Below are positions 114-4,120 of a DNA stretch of 4,216 bases, one piece after another; within the stretch, counting starts at the first letter, position 1, and the number at the start of each line of letters is the position of its first letter. This DNA comes from a virus (Duplodnaviria > Heunggongvirae > Uroviricota > Caudoviricetes). Where the stretch lies: IMG/VR virus record IMGVR_UViG_2703718821_000005; one strand, given 5' to 3'. Made by a program: the position numbers and the translations under genes. The notes below the pieces were generated by a model, which was not told the DNA's origin, did not search any database, and saw only the letters and a list, made by a program, of their open reading frames with translations.

Positions 114-269
114 TTACTTCTCAGATTCGTAGTCTACGAAGACAGCAACCTCCGTCTGGCCGGTTCGGATTCGTACCTCGCAGAGGTCTTTCCTCGTTAC
201 CAGTGCCGTCACTATGACGGTTAAACAGATGACGATCAGGGCGATTAGCATCGCCTTTTGCTGCTTCAT
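114..269 (-). CDS. hok: Hok/Gef-family type I toxin (small membrane-depolarising peptide), 51 aa
   Basis: Internal Met of the 114..326 ORF gives MKQQKAMLIALIVICLTVIVTALVTRKDLCEVRIRTGQTEVAVFVDYESEK: hydrophobic N-terminal helix, conserved RKDLCEV and TGQTEVA motifs of the Hok/Gef family. ATG at 269-267 is preceded by AAGGAG about 9 nt upstream. Closest by memory to E. coli HokC/HokD; exact paralog not certain. Confidence 0.85.
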   Translation of the reverse strand: MKQQKAMLIALIVICLTVIVTALVTRKDLCEVRIRTGQTEVAVFVDYESEK

Positions 270-326
270 AGCCTGCTGCTCCTTGCCTTTCGGCGCATAA
301 GAGGCTAATCTAAGTGTGCAAGTCAT
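114..326 (-). CDS. mok: mok-like overlapping reading frame (in-frame 19-codon N-terminal extension of hok; translational coupling ORF)
   Basis: ORF track 70-aa ORF begins MTCTLRLASYAPKGKEQQA and continues in frame into Hok, as in chromosomal mokC/hokC-type loci. ATG at 326-324 is preceded by GAGG about 8 nt upstream. Confidence 0.55.
   Translation of the reverse strand: MTCTLRLASYAPKGKEQQAMKQQKAMLIALIVICLTVIVTALVTRKDLCEVRIRTGQTEVAVFVDYESEK
283..311 (+). promoter_or_regulatory. Putative sigma70 promoter for Sok-like antisense RNA (TTGCCT -17 bp- TAATCT)
   Basis: -35 TTGCCT at 283-288, 17-bp spacer, -10 TAATCT at 306-311, inside the mok/hok coding region on the opposite strand. Predicted start near 318. 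Confidence 0.35.
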
Positions 327-389
327 AGATATGGCCTCAGATTAATGTTAAGCGTCTTGCCAGACGCGTAATGTTAACTGGGGCTTTTC
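318..389 (+). ncRNA. sok: Sok-like antisense RNA (type I antitoxin), about 70 nt, antisense to the mok translation-initiation region
   Basis: Predicted start about 318 from the promoter above. Covers the complement of the mok start codon (324-326) and its SD. Ends in a compound stem-loop: outer stem 334-340 / 378-384 (one G-U pair) enclosing a 6-bp hairpin GCGTCT-tgcc-AGACGC (352-367), followed by TTTT at 385-388. Geometry matches plasmid R1 hok/sok. Boundaries approximate. Confidence 0.4.
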
Positions 390-445
390 TCTATCTGCCT
401 TTTGGTGTTCATGCCTGAGACCGATAGCCTCAAGCACCCGCAGCA

Positions 446-523: not shown

Positions 524-590
524 TGGAACGAATTCAATCAGTTAAAGACTCATCAGAATCTCACCTTTCTAAGTGCCCACAGGTGAGGCA

Positions 591-619
591 TTGCAATAAA
601 AATAGCAAACGTGTATAAA
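591..619 (+). promoter_or_regulatory. Putative sigma70 promoter for the uORF-kinase-phosphatase operon (TTGCAA -17 bp- TATAAA)
   Basis: -35 TTGCAA at 591-596, 17-bp spacer, -10 TATAAA at 614-619 with TG at 612-613. Caveat: the -10 abuts the uORF SD (619-625), so this promoter and SD-dependent uORF translation cannot both be right. Confidence 0.25.
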
Positions 620-631
620 AGGAGGTAATGC

Positions 632-670
632 ATGTTTTTCCAGTCTTATCAATCCATTACTGAGAGTTAA
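632..670 (+). CDS. 12-codon upstream ORF (MFFQSYQSITES) with strong SD; possible leader peptide coupled to kinase translation
   Basis: AAGGAGG at 619-625, 6-nt spacer, ATG at 632. Stop TAA at 668-670 sits inside the kinase SD (AAGGGGG at 669-675). Below the ORF-track size cutoff; found by reading the sequence. Confidence 0.25.
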   Translation: MFFQSYQSITES

Positions 671-679
671 GGGGGCGCC

Positions 680-1474
680 GTGGATCGGTGCGGTAATTAT
701 TTACTTAAAGATGGTCGCAGTTTAGGACAAGGGAGTTTTGGCGAAGTATTTAAGGTTGATGTCTATAACTTAACCCAGACCCACATGACCACATATGCTC
801 GCAAATACTTTTCACCTTGCCCGGACTTTGACAAGACCGCTATAAAAGAGTTGACTGATTTAAGACAGCGTTTTTTAGTTGAGATCAAAACACAATGCAC
901 TCTCAATAGAATAAACTATGATTCAATAGCGCCAATAGTTTTATTTAATACAAATGGTGATAAACCTTATTTTGTTATGGAATTGGCAGAGTGTAACTTA
1001 TATGAAGCCATCCGCAATGGTATGAACTACGCGGAGAGGAAGTCTGCTGTTACTCAGATTTTAAAAGGAATTATCACCATACATGAAAACAACTATATAC
1101 ATCGTGATTTAAAACCAGGAAACATACTTTATTATGCCGATGGAAAGTATAAAATATCTGATTTTGGTCTAGTAAAAGACAGAGATACCTTACGGGCCGA
1201 AATCAAAACAAAATTTAAGCCTAATCACATGGGCACAGATGGATATCGAGCGCCCGAAATACATGATAGCGGTCTTTTTTCTTTTCAAAGTGACATATTT
1301 GCAGCAGGTAAAATTATCACTGATATATATCCCACAGAAAGAAGTGAAAAATTAAAAAGATTGATTGCAAAATGTTGCGCACATTGGCCTGAAGAACGAT
1401 ATCAAAGCACACGGGAGTTACTGGAAGATTTTTTAAAAGTGACGGGGGAGGTAAATCATGAAGAACATAATTGA
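680..1474 (+). CDS. Hanks-type (eukaryotic-like) Ser/Thr protein kinase, kinase domain only, 264 aa, GTG start
   Basis: Glycine loop LGQGSFGEV; candidate beta3 Lys in YARKYF; catalytic loop HRDLKPGN; DFG in ISDFGL; activation segment GTDGYRAPE. GTG at 680 with AAGGGGG 4 nt upstream. AT-rich codon usage. No recognisable sensor or transmembrane domain. Confidence 0.85.
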   Translation: MDRCGNYLLKDGRSLGQGSFGEVFKVDVYNLTQTHMTTYARKYFSPCPDFDKTAIKELTDLRQRFLVEIKTQCTLNRINYDSIAPIVLFNTNGDKPYFVMELAECNLYEAIRNGMNYAERKSAVTQILKGIITIHENNYIHRDLKPGNILYYADGKYKISDFGLVKDRDTLRAEIKTKFKPNHMGTDGYRAPEIHDSGLFSFQSDIFAAGKIITDIYPTERSEKLKRLIAKCCAHWPEERYQSTRELLEDFLKVTGEVNHEEHN

Positions 1475-2174
1475 AATGGCATGTTTTAGCCTAAAACAAC
1501 CCCAAAAAAAAGAAAATGAAGACTTTTATTTACCGCCATCTTTTGATAGCGATTTTAACATTGTCTTTGCAGTAGCTGATGGGGTTGGTTCCTCTGAACA
1601 TTCAATGCTTGCATCTCATGCAGCCATTCGTGGCATTAGACACACGCTAGGCACTTCCTTTTTCTCAATTGAAAGTGCATTTCATTCAGCTAAAAAAGAA
1701 ATTGACAATTTAGATATTAGCACTGCCACAACCTTAACAATTGTTCAGATCAAAAAAAATGAAGTGTTAATTGGTCATTCCGGTGATTGCCGAGTATACT
1801 TCAATAAAAACAATAAACTAAATCAGTTAACCACTGATCAAACGAGATATCAAGAACTCCTTGATTCTGGTGAACATAAATTACGTAATTTAAGAAATCA
1901 TAAAGAACGGCTATCTTCAGTCCTAACGAATGCTTTATCAAATACAACGGATTTGAATTTTGAGTTAATGTCTTTTCCGATTAGCCAGCTAATTTATAAT
2001 GGCTATCTTCAACTCTATGCAATGACTGATGGTGCCTATAAGCATTGGGATGTCAGACCAAGGTTTTCTGAGAAGACAATGCTCTCACCAACAGCTTTTG
2101 CGAGTAGTTTAAGAAAAAGGATTGAGAAAAACATAATGGATGATTACACCTTTATAGGCGTAAAAGTAACCTAA
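1458..2174 (+). CDS. PP2C/PPM-family Ser/Thr protein phosphatase, 238 aa
   Basis: PPM-like motifs: KKENEDFY (RxxNED-like), VADGVGSS (DGxGG-like), GHSGDCRVY (GDSR-like), MTDGAY, C-terminal DDYTFIGV (DN-I/V-T-like). ATG at 1458 with GGGGGAGG 6 nt upstream; overlaps the kinase 3' end by 17 nt. Confidence 0.8.
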   Translation: MKNIIEMACFSLKQPQKKENEDFYLPPSFDSDFNIVFAVADGVGSSEHSMLASHAAIRGIRHTLGTSFFSIESAFHSAKKEIDNLDISTATTLTIVQIKKNEVLIGHSGDCRVYFNKNNKLNQLTTDQTRYQELLDSGEHKLRNLRNHKERLSSVLTNALSNTTDLNFELMSFPISQLIYNGYLQLYAMTDGAYKHWDVRPRFSEKTMLSPTAFASSLRKRIEKNIMDDYTFIGVKVT

Positions 2175-2217
2175 TTTTAGATATCCAAGATATTTACTCT
2201 AATTTAACCATAGCATT

Positions 2218-2244
2218 CCCAACCTCTTTTTATTGGGGGTTGGG
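2218..2244. other. Inverted repeat CCCAACC-(13 nt)-GGTTGGG in the convergent junction after the phosphatase gene; weak candidate bidirectional terminator
   Basis: Arms at 2218-2224 and 2238-2244 are exact reverse complements. Loop is long and T-rich (TCTTTTTATTGGG); no clean downstream U-run. Confidence 0.15.
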
Positions 2245-2327: not shown

Positions 2328-2432
2328 TCATATCACGCCATGCTTCCACCGCGGTAACTCTACATAGTCCATTAACAGTTCATGCCATTCTTCAAAACTG
2401 ACGTTGTATTTAGTTGAACCAAAATCAGCCAT
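2328..2432 (-). CDS. Small ORF, 34 aa (MADFGSTKYNVSFEEWHELLMDYVELPRWKHGVI), hypothetical
   Basis: ATG at 2432-2430 lies 2 nt past the stop of the 60-aa ORF in a different frame; stop TGA at 2330-2328. No convincing SD. Found by manual translation; may be spurious. Confidence 0.15.
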   Translation of the reverse strand: MADFGSTKYNVSFEEWHELLMDYVELPRWKHGVI

Positions 2433-2754: not shown

Positions 2755-3060
2755 TTAATTTCGCTCACTGGTTGCCTCCTGGAAAATAACTGCATGCCCC
2801 AGTTTCTCCGCCAGTGCCAGCTCTGCCTTAGCGCCTGCCGACCGCTGCCAGCCTTCCAGCATATAAACCGCATCCACACAACGAATCATTGCCATGCAAA
2901 TATCCATGTAATGTGGCTGAGTCAGCCCGTCCGGAAGTACTGCGGGATTTAATACGGTATGCCCTTCCTGTTTCAGTGCTTCTTCCGCCTTGTGAAACGC
3001 CTCACGGTTGAAATTTTCATATCCCGTCATCGGACCGGCGATATAAATTCTCACCCTCAC
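2755..3060 (-). CDS. DUF4406-like (nucleoside 2-deoxyribosyltransferase-like fold) phage-associated protein, 101 aa
   Basis: N-terminal RIYIAGPMTG motif resembles the IY(L/I)AGP signature of this fold; size typical of DUF4406 proteins as I recall. GTG start at 3060-3058 preceded by AGGAGG 8 nt upstream, and overlapping the upstream stop as GTGA. Confidence 0.7.
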   Translation of the reverse strand: MRVRIYIAGPMTGYENFNREAFHKAEEALKQEGHTVLNPAVLPDGLTQPHYMDICMAMIRCVDAVYMLEGWQRSAGAKAELALAEKLGHAVIFQEATSERN

Positions 3061-3370: not shown

Positions 3371-4087
3371 TCACCGCAGCAGCTCTCTGGTGGCGGTAAT
3401 ATCCCGGAGAATATCCCTGTGTTTGTTCAGTTCCCGCAGCGCGGCGCAGACACGCTCCCACTTCTGAACCTGACCTTTTGCCCGGCGCAGCTCGCGGTTA
3501 GCCACATGCAGCGATGGTAGAATCAGGTCATCTGCTTTCGTTTCGGTGACCGATGGCTGTAACTTCACAATGTCTTCCACGATTTCTGTTTTCATTTCTT
3601 CCTGTGTCGTCGTTTCCCGGACTGGTAACGCAACACCTGCTGGCTGAGGAAAGGCTTTACCATCTGTTTCCGCTACGGATGCAGCTTCCGGCTCTGCCGG
3701 TAAATCAGCGCCCGGTATGCAGTAACGAAATTTACCGCCCTGATTCACGCGAATCAGACGCCCTTTGCTGATTGCCATGGCCAGCGATGAATTCGCCCGG
3801 CGGGAGGTAATCCCGAACATCAGTGCCAGCTCATCTGCCGTTTGTGGGCCATGTTGTTCAATCGCCTTAATCAGCATTTGCGCTGTCACTTTCGGTACCG
3901 GTGACACCGGTTCACTTTCACCAGCCTGAATCAGCCACCACATCGAACCCTTGTTATCCGCTTCACCGCGGCGCTTCAGTTTCCACAGTTCGTTGACCGC
4001 ATCTTCACGGCTGATTCCAAGGCGGGCCGCCACTACCTGTGAAGAGGCTCTTTTCAGTGCTTTCAGTGCGTCAAATACAGTTTCCAT
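3371..4087 (-). CDS. Phage-like hypothetical protein with two tandem winged-helix-like N-terminal repeats and a charged, likely coiled-coil C-terminus, 238 aa
   Basis: ORF track frame 3371..4105, re-started here at ATG 4087-4085 (METVFDALK...) because GGAGG lies about 9 nt upstream, whereas the track's TTG at 4105 overlaps that SD. Repeats [41 protein letters not shown] and [43 protein letters not shown] align by eye. Confidence 0.7.
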
Positions 4088-4120
4088 TAAAATTTCCTCC
4101 GACAAAATCGTTTCTCAGAT

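Follow-up and report, generated by a model that had tools for sequence, protein, structure and literature searches.

A mobile Hanks kinase–PP2C phosphatase pair in the nin region of an Escherichia coli Stx2a prophage, and its possible role as a phosphorylation-based anti-phage module

KKP is a kinase toxin/phosphatase antitoxin anti-phage module of Pf6 and of other prophages and satellites, in which the phosphatase PfpC is encoded together with the kinases PfkB and PfkA (Guo et al., Nat Commun 2024, PMC11341870). Prophages of various types in Gram-negative bacteria, P2, P4 and Mu-like ones among them, carry this module, which does two things: inhibition of PfpC by the T4 protein Gp59 leads to growth arrest and blocks phage production, while phosphorylation of MvaU controls the production of Pf prophage itself (PMC11341870). 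This article describes a smaller relative in kind, a pair made up of one Hanks-type kinase and one PP2C/PPM phosphatase, found in a 4,216-bp stretch of Caudoviricetes DNA (IMG/VR record IMGVR_UViG_2703718821_000005; “the window” below). The initial annotation of this DNA, made from the sequence alone, had taken the pair for a candidate abortive-infection or defence module. The closest precedent, KKP (PMC11341870), was absent from it, and this precedent lowers the conceptual novelty of the locus.

How does the window pair compare with KKP, its closest characterised analogue? Both bring together Hanks kinase and PP2C (PF13672) in one operon on prophages and satellites. However, KKP consists of three genes, phosphatase-kinase-kinase in that order, while the window and 100 of the 103 loci gathered for its family have two, kinase then phosphatase, without an adjacent second kinase. 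The KKP kinases carry C-terminal FHA (PfkB) and CSD (PfkA) domains that are needed for toxicity, and the window kinase has neither. Finally, the KKP genes measure 900–1300 bp and their phosphatase is reported to have an N-terminal phosphatase domain, whereas the window proteins, of 264 and 238 aa, are catalytic domains and nothing more. Among the 100 phosphatase homologues listed, none has a KKP-like size or architecture.

Other kinases used in defence are more distant. PD-T4-6 is a single-gene Ser/Thr kinase defence of E. coli with validated anti-T4 activity (Vassallo et al. 2022, PMC9519451); its gene of 1,311 bp (~436 aa) encodes a kinase domain at residues 9–284 and a C-terminal region (PMC9519451 supplement). 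The window kinase is also a Hanks kinase of the E. coli accessory genome and it matches the PD-T4-6 profiles (1.2e-32 in PADLOC), but it covers only positions 16–202 of a 327-position profile, lacks the C-terminal region and is coupled to a phosphatase. Stk2 of Staphylococcus, a Hanks kinase that is activated by a phage protein to cause abortive infection (Depardieu et al. 2016, as cited in PMC9122126 and PMC11341870), is encoded by the host as one longer gene without a dedicated phosphatase, and the window kinase matches only positions 162–360 of its 500-position profile (2.6e-25). In the case of MADS, MAD6 has ~610–660 aa and only the core of the mad6 profile is matched (positions 54–246 of 659; 1e-37), with an NCBIfam MAD6 score of 70.6 bits against a cut-off of 460; no mad gene lies near the pair, either among the window's Pfam matches or in the annotation of its 44-kb prophage.

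The kinase Stk of phage 933W deserves separate mention. This eukaryotic-like kinase of an Stx prophage is reported, in a paper cited in PMC9122126, to cause abortive infection of heterologous phage (Friedman et al. 2011), and to be a tyrosine kinase according to the title cited there. The annotation places its gene within the cI/pM operon and ahead of tM, a putative terminator. Both are Stx-prophage kinases, and the Glaesserella homologues of the window pair hold an equivalent post-cI position. Nevertheless, Stk has 348 aa, reads HFD instead of HRD, has no phosphatase partner and sits at a different prophage locus (the cI operon and not the nin region). Offered as a precedent by the initial annotation, it is only a distant relative: identity to the window kinase is 27% over 197 C-lobe residues, and a tblastn search at 1e-3 did not retrieve it.

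The TerY-P triad, a reported defence system, consists of the vWA protein TerY, a PP2C and a Ser/Thr kinase (Gao et al. 2020, as summarised in PMC7699616). PP2C and Hanks kinase are encoded together here as well, but the TerY/vWA gene that the triad requires is absent. No vWA gene was found among the window's open reading frames (ORFs) with Pfam, and none is annotated across the 44-kb prophage, so that, in agreement with the initial annotation, the pair is not a canonical TerY-P system. Lastly, the same two folds are found in the housekeeping pairs PknB/PstP, PrkC/PrpC and Stk1/Stp1, where the cognate PP2C dephosphorylates both the activation loop of the kinase and the kinase's substrates. The kinases of these pairs have transmembrane and PASTA sensor domains and belong to conserved operons of the core genome, whereas the window pair has no such domains and is mobile and rare. 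The window pair is therefore not TerY-P, KKP, PD-T4-6, Stk2, MADS or 933W Stk, although by analogy its mechanism would most resemble that of KKP. It is a two-gene minimal version of the prophage kinase-phosphatase modules, a concept already set by KKP, Stk2 and PD-T4-6.

Two bare catalytic domains in one operon

The first gene of the pair (680–1474, plus strand, GTG start) encodes a Hanks-type protein kinase of 264 aa, with a single catalytic domain and no accessory domain. RefSeq annotates the same two genes, including the GTG start of the kinase, at a 99.1%-identical E. coli locus. The protein matches Pfam Pkinase (PF00069) above the cut-off (E=1.4e-31) and phrog_2361 of PHROGs (2.6e-51). 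The kinase motif residues are present: G16xG18xxG21, K42, E68, H141-R142-D143, N148, D161-F162-G163, the APE glutamate E193, D205 and R240. Pfam reveals no second domain, whether PASTA, transmembrane, sensor, DNA-binding, FHA or CSD, and the initial description of a kinase with a full motif set and no sensor or membrane domain is thus borne out. The AlphaFold model (pLDDT 88, pTM 0.87) has a complete bilobal fold, with low confidence only at residues 172–176 of the activation loop and in the last six residues. Over its full length, Foldseek aligns this model to solved protein kinases with TM scores of 0.7–0.78 (about 0.75). The top kinase matches are tyrosine kinases at ~22% identity, and this was not taken as evidence for Tyr specificity. 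HRDLKPGN and GT(D)GYxAPE are Ser/Thr-type signatures.

From its motifs and its model, the kinase looks catalytically competent. Its activation loop carries T177, a position occupied by Thr or Ser in 86 of 86 homologues. The spacing between T177 and the GT of the P+1 loop resembles that of the known PknB phosphosites T171/T173.

The second gene (1458–2174, plus strand, ATG start) encodes a PP2C/PPM phosphatase of 238 aa. It is preceded by a Shine-Dalgarno (SD) sequence, GGAGG, at 1447–1451, and overlaps the kinase ORF by 17 nt; its translation is probably coupled to that of the kinase. The match to Pfam PP2C_2 (PF13672) lies above the cut-off (E=1.4e-10) and is confined to residues 16–129. The metal-binding aspartates are all the same in place: D22, D41(-G42), (G109-)D110, D191(-G192), D228 and D229, the C-terminal D191, D228 and D229 lying beyond the Pfam match and being seen in the family alignment. 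These profile matches, together with the single Pkinase domain upstream, support what had been read from the sequence, a PP2C/PPM protein overlapping a Hanks kinase. The AlphaFold model (pLDDT 93.9) adopts the PPM beta-sandwich fold, and full-length superposition yields TM scores of 0.78 with Mycobacterium tuberculosis PstP (1txo), 0.77 with tPphA and 0.74 with Stp1. These are the closest solved phosphatases, and profile matches to the chains of the PstP, tPphA and Stp1 structures reach E ~1e-19. On such grounds the phosphatase, too, looks catalytically competent. In PHROGs it belongs to phrog_5650 (3.9e-31), where it matches positions 273–517 of a 565-position profile. Fusions of the two enzymes, or gene calls that were merged, may be among the members of this phrog; no fusion protein was found in ~180 loci or in the homologue lists.

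A conserved cassette in many accessory slots

Are the two genes neighbours by accident? Loci were gathered from species-representative genomes and from IMG/VR, starting from either the phosphatase or the kinase, and were analysed with family HMMs. When the phosphatase is the starting point, a kinase ORF lies directly upstream on the same strand in 100 of 103 distinct pairs, both genes being full length in 88. A 4-nt overlap is the modal junction (56/100), and 98 of the 100 junctions fall between -28 and +9 nt. When the kinase is the starting point, a full phosphatase lies directly downstream in 74 of 78 loci, and the remaining four are contig ends or frameshifts. The pairing of kinase and phosphatase is obligate. 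There is no third conserved partner gene, the flanking Pfam families being heterogeneous phage and mobile-element genes.

In a set of 86 distinct full-length pairs, the lowest pairwise identity is 27% for the kinase and 31% for the phosphatase. The catalytic residues of both enzymes are nevertheless invariant in all 86 pairs, save the APE glutamate E193 of the kinase (74/86), and the distance matrices of the two proteins are correlated (r=0.88, Mantel p=0.001). Both enzymes are under strong purifying selection and are co-inherited. Family members range from 234 to 263 aa for the phosphatases and from ~241 to 298 aa for the kinases, and the named homologues all come from Gammaproteobacteria. 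When 1.84 billion representative proteins were searched with a profile, only ~20 clusters (50% identity) reached a family-level score, below which the scores are those of generic PP2C proteins. The pair forms a family of its own, phrog_2361 with phrog_5650.

The borders of the cassette were drawn by comparison. A lambdoid phage without the cassette, Escherichia phage vB_EcoS-640R1 (L242), matches the window only at 1–486 and 2343–2722 (blastn), so that the AT-rich insert at 487–2342 stands in place of 793 bp of unrelated sequence in that phage. At the right border, a 34-aa ORF (2328–2432, minus strand) matches only the C-terminal end of phrog_519 (positions 76–101 of 143). Given this partial match, and since homology with the cassette-less phage restarts at 2343, the ORF looks like a cut-down nin-region gene and a recombination scar. 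Within the insert lies a smaller conserved core (590–2179, plus strand), made of promoter, leader, kinase and phosphatase. The cassettes of Pantoea (in a P4-like satellite), Scandinavium, Buttiauxella and an IMG/VR contig share 76–80% nucleotide identity with the window over 600/607–2172/2179, with unrelated flanks, and the alignment of the upstream ends (A4) carries conservation out to a -35 element. Because cross-genus homology stops at ~590–2179, the mobile unit is taken to run from the promoter through the leader and the kinase to the phosphatase, most versions also having a terminator. Such features are hallmarks of a phage moron, as judged from sequence.

The putative sigma-70 promoter (591–619, plus strand) has a -35 element TTGCAA at 591–596, a 17-nt spacer and a -10 element TATAAA at 614–619. 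The strings ATTGC and GTGTATAAAA are invariant in 7 cassettes of 4 genera that lie in differing genomic contexts (alignment A4), which suggests a promoter borne by the cassette itself. It is followed by a 5′ leader (620–679, plus strand), also conserved at the nucleotide level in A4, with the ribosome-binding site of the kinase, GGGGG, at 671–675. The feature had initially been made to start at 618; all the elements described are present, but 618 belongs to the 5′ leader and coding begins only at 680. The leader of the window also contains an upstream ORF of 11 codons (629–664, plus strand; MHVFPVLSIHY) with a near-perfect SD sequence, AAGGAGGT. Its start codon, SD sequence and frame are unconserved in Pantoea, Scandinavium and Buttiauxella and are confined to the E. 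coli lineage. A functional leader peptide was rejected for this candidate, which is probably non-functional since SD and start codon are absent in the other genera. Downstream of the phosphatase, a GC-rich hairpin (2218–2244, plus strand) with a 10-bp stem, CCCAACCUCU/GGGGGUUGGG, and a weak T tail is predicted by RNA folding between the convergent transcription units. It is terminator-like, and may act weakly as a terminator. The cassettes of other genera have a different and clearer hairpin with a T-run directly 3′ of the phosphatase stop. The intergenic spacers around the pair have medians of 149 nt upstream and 173 nt downstream.

This cassette sits in at least seven different accessory slots of phages, satellites and a small integrative element. 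In the E. coli window, it lies antisense in the nin region. In Cronobacter phage phiES15 and in Yersinia pseudotuberculosis, it is found between the antiterminator Q and the holin, which is the position of stx in Stx phages. In Escherichia phage Flotzy and in Xenorhabdus it is flanked by Rz and the small terminase, and neighbour counts make this slot the commonest. It comes directly after, and overlaps, a cI-type repressor gene in Glaesserella parasuis, lies at the psu-int locus of a P4-like satellite in Pantoea ananatis, closes a P2-like prophage beside ogr in Enterobacter hormaechei, and accompanies a small integrase and Mob_Pre element in Vibrio vulnificus. Neighbours were counted by running Pfam on the nearest two ORFs to either side of distinct loci. 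Upstream, these are lysozyme (13), Rz (8), HTH_3 (8), Peptidase_S24 (5) and Q-type antiterminators (5); downstream, they are integrase (6), terminase subunits, KilA-N, Bro-N and holin. No housekeeping operon was met: the contexts examined are all phages, satellites, a small integrative element or islets beside an integrase. Recurrence in conserved housekeeping settings, which the initial annotation had named as a refutation, was therefore not seen. This agrees with the initial suggestion of prophage accessory cargo, a moron, now seen as a mobile cassette.

The host range extends from Escherichia to Acinetobacter, Haemophilus and Xanthomonas, and the pair is rare. Among 5,426 complete E. coli genomes 33 carry a copy, chromosomal every time, and so do ~40 of 185,579 species representatives. 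Among the 33 E. coli copies, 29 are at least 99% identical; they come from O157:H7, O145:H28, O103, O121, O45 and porcine ETEC. IMG/VR yields 134 relatives. In the phage collection, family-level matches (32–39% identity) are found only in two lambdoid phages, Flotzy and the UV-induced phiES15. The exact proteins are present on at least 1,000 public contigs.

The Stx2a prophage around the cassette

The window aligns over its full length, at 99.1% identity, with the chromosome of the bovine E. coli OkiPb01682. The counterpart locus is the nin region of a lambdoid prophage that adjoins potC and has stx2a, relBE and dicB as well as a full late region of the lambda type. The window is the nin region of an E. 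coli Stx2a lambdoid prophage. The 44-kb prophage context (L001) also has three tRNA genes, a YdaT-family toxin and a DNA methyltransferase, and thus belongs to a cargo-rich Stx2a phage.

To the left of the cassette lies a complete hok/mok/sok type I toxin-antitoxin locus (114–439, minus strand), ~92% identical to hokW of 933W and a usual constituent of lambdoid nin regions. It comprises hok (114–269, minus strand; Pfam HOK_GEF 1e-22) and the sok/mok regulatory region (264–439, minus strand; Rfam RF01794, 109.7 bits). To the right, all on the minus strand, come DUF7167 (phrog_1997; 2425–2607), DUF4406 (2755–3060), weakly similar to nucleoside 2-deoxyribosyltransferase, an HTH protein and DUF1627 (3371–4105), assigned with Pfam, and then the end of the replication gene P. 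DUF7167, DUF4406 and DUF1627 are uncharacterised nin-region genes with no assigned function in Stx/lambdoid phages. The flanking phage genes all lie on the minus strand within the P-to-Q early-right operon, and the kinase-phosphatase operon is the sole plus-strand unit of the window, running opposite to the phage early operon. GC content is 0.32–0.39 over ~750–2550, 0.48–0.57 further right and 0.50–0.53 at the left end. The AT-rich insert between hok/mok/sok and phage genes, noticed at the outset, is confirmed by this profile and by the HOK_GEF and RF01794 matches. A functional link with hok/sok was rejected: hok neighbours the pair in the E. coli nin-region lineage alone, and since no other homologous pair adjoins it, there is no functional connection.

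Possible roles of the pair

What, then, might two bare enzymes do for a prophage? From the KKP precedent, the same toxin/antidote logic is proposed for the minimal pair: it would be a phosphorylation-based module, expressed in the lysogen, that guards this lysogen against other phages. This is the likeliest of the readings considered, and we regard the chances for and against it as evenly poised. It supposes that the lysogen expresses the pair, that the kinase is toxic, that the phosphatase serves as antidote, that a trigger exists and that phages are held off. In such a scheme, the coupling of the two genes would set the kinase:phosphatase ratio. The kinase would autophosphorylate its activation loop, with T177 as the candidate site, and once active would phosphorylate many host and/or phage proteins, leading to growth arrest. 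The co-translated PP2C, which by analogy with the cognate housekeeping pairs should act on the kinase's activation loop and on its substrates, would continuously reverse this phosphorylation, leaving the cell unharmed. An infecting phage would shift the balance toward the kinase, either because the phosphatase is inhibited or titrated, because the kinase is activated, or because host expression is shut off, and phage production in the infected cell would then be aborted. By analogy, this would make the pair a type VII-like toxin-antitoxin system with an enzymatic antitoxin, and Thr/Ser177 its predicted target.

More broadly, and somewhat more tentatively, the family may be a distinct minimal two-gene “KP” immunity family. 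In this proposal, which we hold to be a little short of even, a bare Hanks kinase effector would be joined to a bare PP2C guard/antidote that senses infection, on a promoter-bearing cassette that would hop, with at least seven accessory slots to use, among lambdoid, P2-like and P4-like elements, including the Stx phages of Shiga toxin-producing E. coli (STEC).

The defence or abortive-infection role suggested from the start is plausible, and several observations strengthen it. The P4 psu-int locus, occupied by the pair in Pantoea, is a documented reservoir of antiviral systems (Rousset 2022, PMC9122126). The kinase matches the defence-kinase profiles of PADLOC given above (mad6, PD-T4-6 and Stk2). 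The post-cI position in Glaesserella prophages and occasional neighbours homologous to validated or candidate defence genes point the same way: a PD-T7-1 homologue (1.9e-147) adjoins the pair in Rouxiella (L039 6497–7855), a HEC-04 homologue (9e-47) adjoins it in Xanthomonas (L057 10925–12562), and a PD-Lambda-1 homologue (4.7e-85) also lies next to a pair (one member of neighbour set A7). The manner in which the pair decays is also suggestive of a toxin/antidote relation. In at least 6 distinct loci the kinase is lost and the phosphatase intact, through 5′ deletions (L025, L136–L138) or as orphan phosphatases (L033, L052), and in three further loci (L107, L022, L045) the kinase is interrupted by a nonsense or frameshift mutation next to an intact phosphatase. 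The reverse, an intact kinase without a phosphatase, has a sole candidate (L091/L165, draft-derived, from IMG/VR), which was rejected. It has A7 at both of the A8 homopolymer runs of the phosphatase gene (1504–1511 and 1752–1759 in the window), and because one A is missing in each of the two runs, the break is probably a sequencing error. These A8 runs would also be slippage-prone sites able to switch the antidote off.

Other results weigh against a defensive module. Pairs do recur in prophages and in the psu-int hotspot, but known defence genes beside them are few, and co-localisation is modest: a handful of strong matches among 273 neighbouring ORFs at ~100 distinct loci. The kinase-decay asymmetry rests on few cases, partly in draft assemblies. 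PADLOC has neither a match for the phosphatase nor a model that treats the two genes as one system. In many copies the pair follows Q or the lysis genes and points in the direction of the late phage genes, which leaves room for expression during lytic growth and for a phage-serving role. The promoter is deduced from its sequence, and a generic promoter/terminator scan found no promoter 5′ of the kinase and no terminator 3′ of the phosphatase; it missed the promoter because the -10 element is without its final T. A literature search with the protein accessions and with phiES15 found no functional study of the pair. In their main texts, supplementary tables aside, neither the DefensePredictor paper (PMC13092281) nor the P2/P4 hotspot paper (PMC9122126) has a Hanks kinase + PP2C pair. 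Finally, since KKP also regulates lysogeny, a kinase-phosphatase pair in a prophage need not be primarily defensive.

This last point leads to the main rival, a regulatory module in which reversible phosphorylation of host regulators (e.g., H-NS-type nucleoid proteins) would tune lysogeny, induction or host physiology, phage exclusion being secondary or absent. It has its own precedent in the action of KKP through MvaU (PMC11341870). The carriers are temperate elements, to which reversible kinase/phosphatase logic is well suited, and one lineage lies directly behind the cI repressor gene. However, the same cassette is found in lambdoid, P2-like, P4-like and non-phage integrative elements with differing circuits and in distant hosts, and this spread over unrelated elements argues against a regulatory role tailored to one phage type; nor did Pfam find any DNA-binding or sensor domain. 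A regulatory role is unlikely in our judgement, though compatible with defence, since KKP does both.

The late-gene orientation just mentioned could be read in yet another manner, as a sign of host takeover during the lytic cycle: the kinase would modify host proteins as T7 gp0.7 does, and the phosphatase would limit or time this for the phage. Read-through from the late promoter is to be expected for the many copies that lie downstream of, and co-oriented with, Q or lysis genes, but expression from a late operon would come too late for such a purpose. The window operon runs opposite to the early operon, with a conserved putative promoter of its own, and other copies sit behind cI, in a non-phage element or in P4-like satellites. 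With family-level matches in the phage collection coming only from two lambdoid phages, takeover appears improbable.

We give an equally small chance to pure addiction, that is, a post-segregational killing module that would stabilise the prophage or satellite without any anti-phage role. The toxin/antidote-like decay asymmetry would suit it, and the same prophage carries hok/sok, relBE and a YdaT-family toxin. Yet addiction calls for an antidote less stable than the toxin, for which an enzyme is no evident fit; integrated prophages have little to gain from post-segregational killing, and occupancy of psu-int favours defence (PMC9122126). Addiction and defence are not, in any case, mutually exclusive. 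As for an ordinary cellular signalling pair (PknB/PstP or PrkC/PrpC type) with a prophage nearby only by chance, the enzyme families, their adjacency and the best NCBIfam matches (Stk1 for the kinase, 89 bits against a cut-off of 450; Stp1 for the phosphatase, E=8.6e-19, 68 bits against 230) recall housekeeping pairs, but these far sub-threshold scores, the absence of PASTA, transmembrane and sensor domains, a GC content foreign to the flanks, the rarity in E. coli genomes and species representatives, and a context that is always a mobile element or islet rule it out.

If the pair does act in defence, no simpler kinase-based module of phage immunity would be known, since it has only two bare catalytic domains and neither adaptor nor sensor. 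It would offer a tractable model for the triggering of a phosphorylation toxin/antidote switch and for the phospho-targets that stop a phage, with a comparative set of ~86 diverse orthologous pairs and with K42, D143 and T177 of the kinase and D41 and D191 of the phosphatase as precise sites for mutation. As the exact proteins found on public contigs include those of Stx-prophage strains of O157:H7, O145:H28, O103, O121 and O45, such a module could also shape the superinfection of Shiga-toxin lysogens, the ecology of Stx phages and the phage-based control of STEC.

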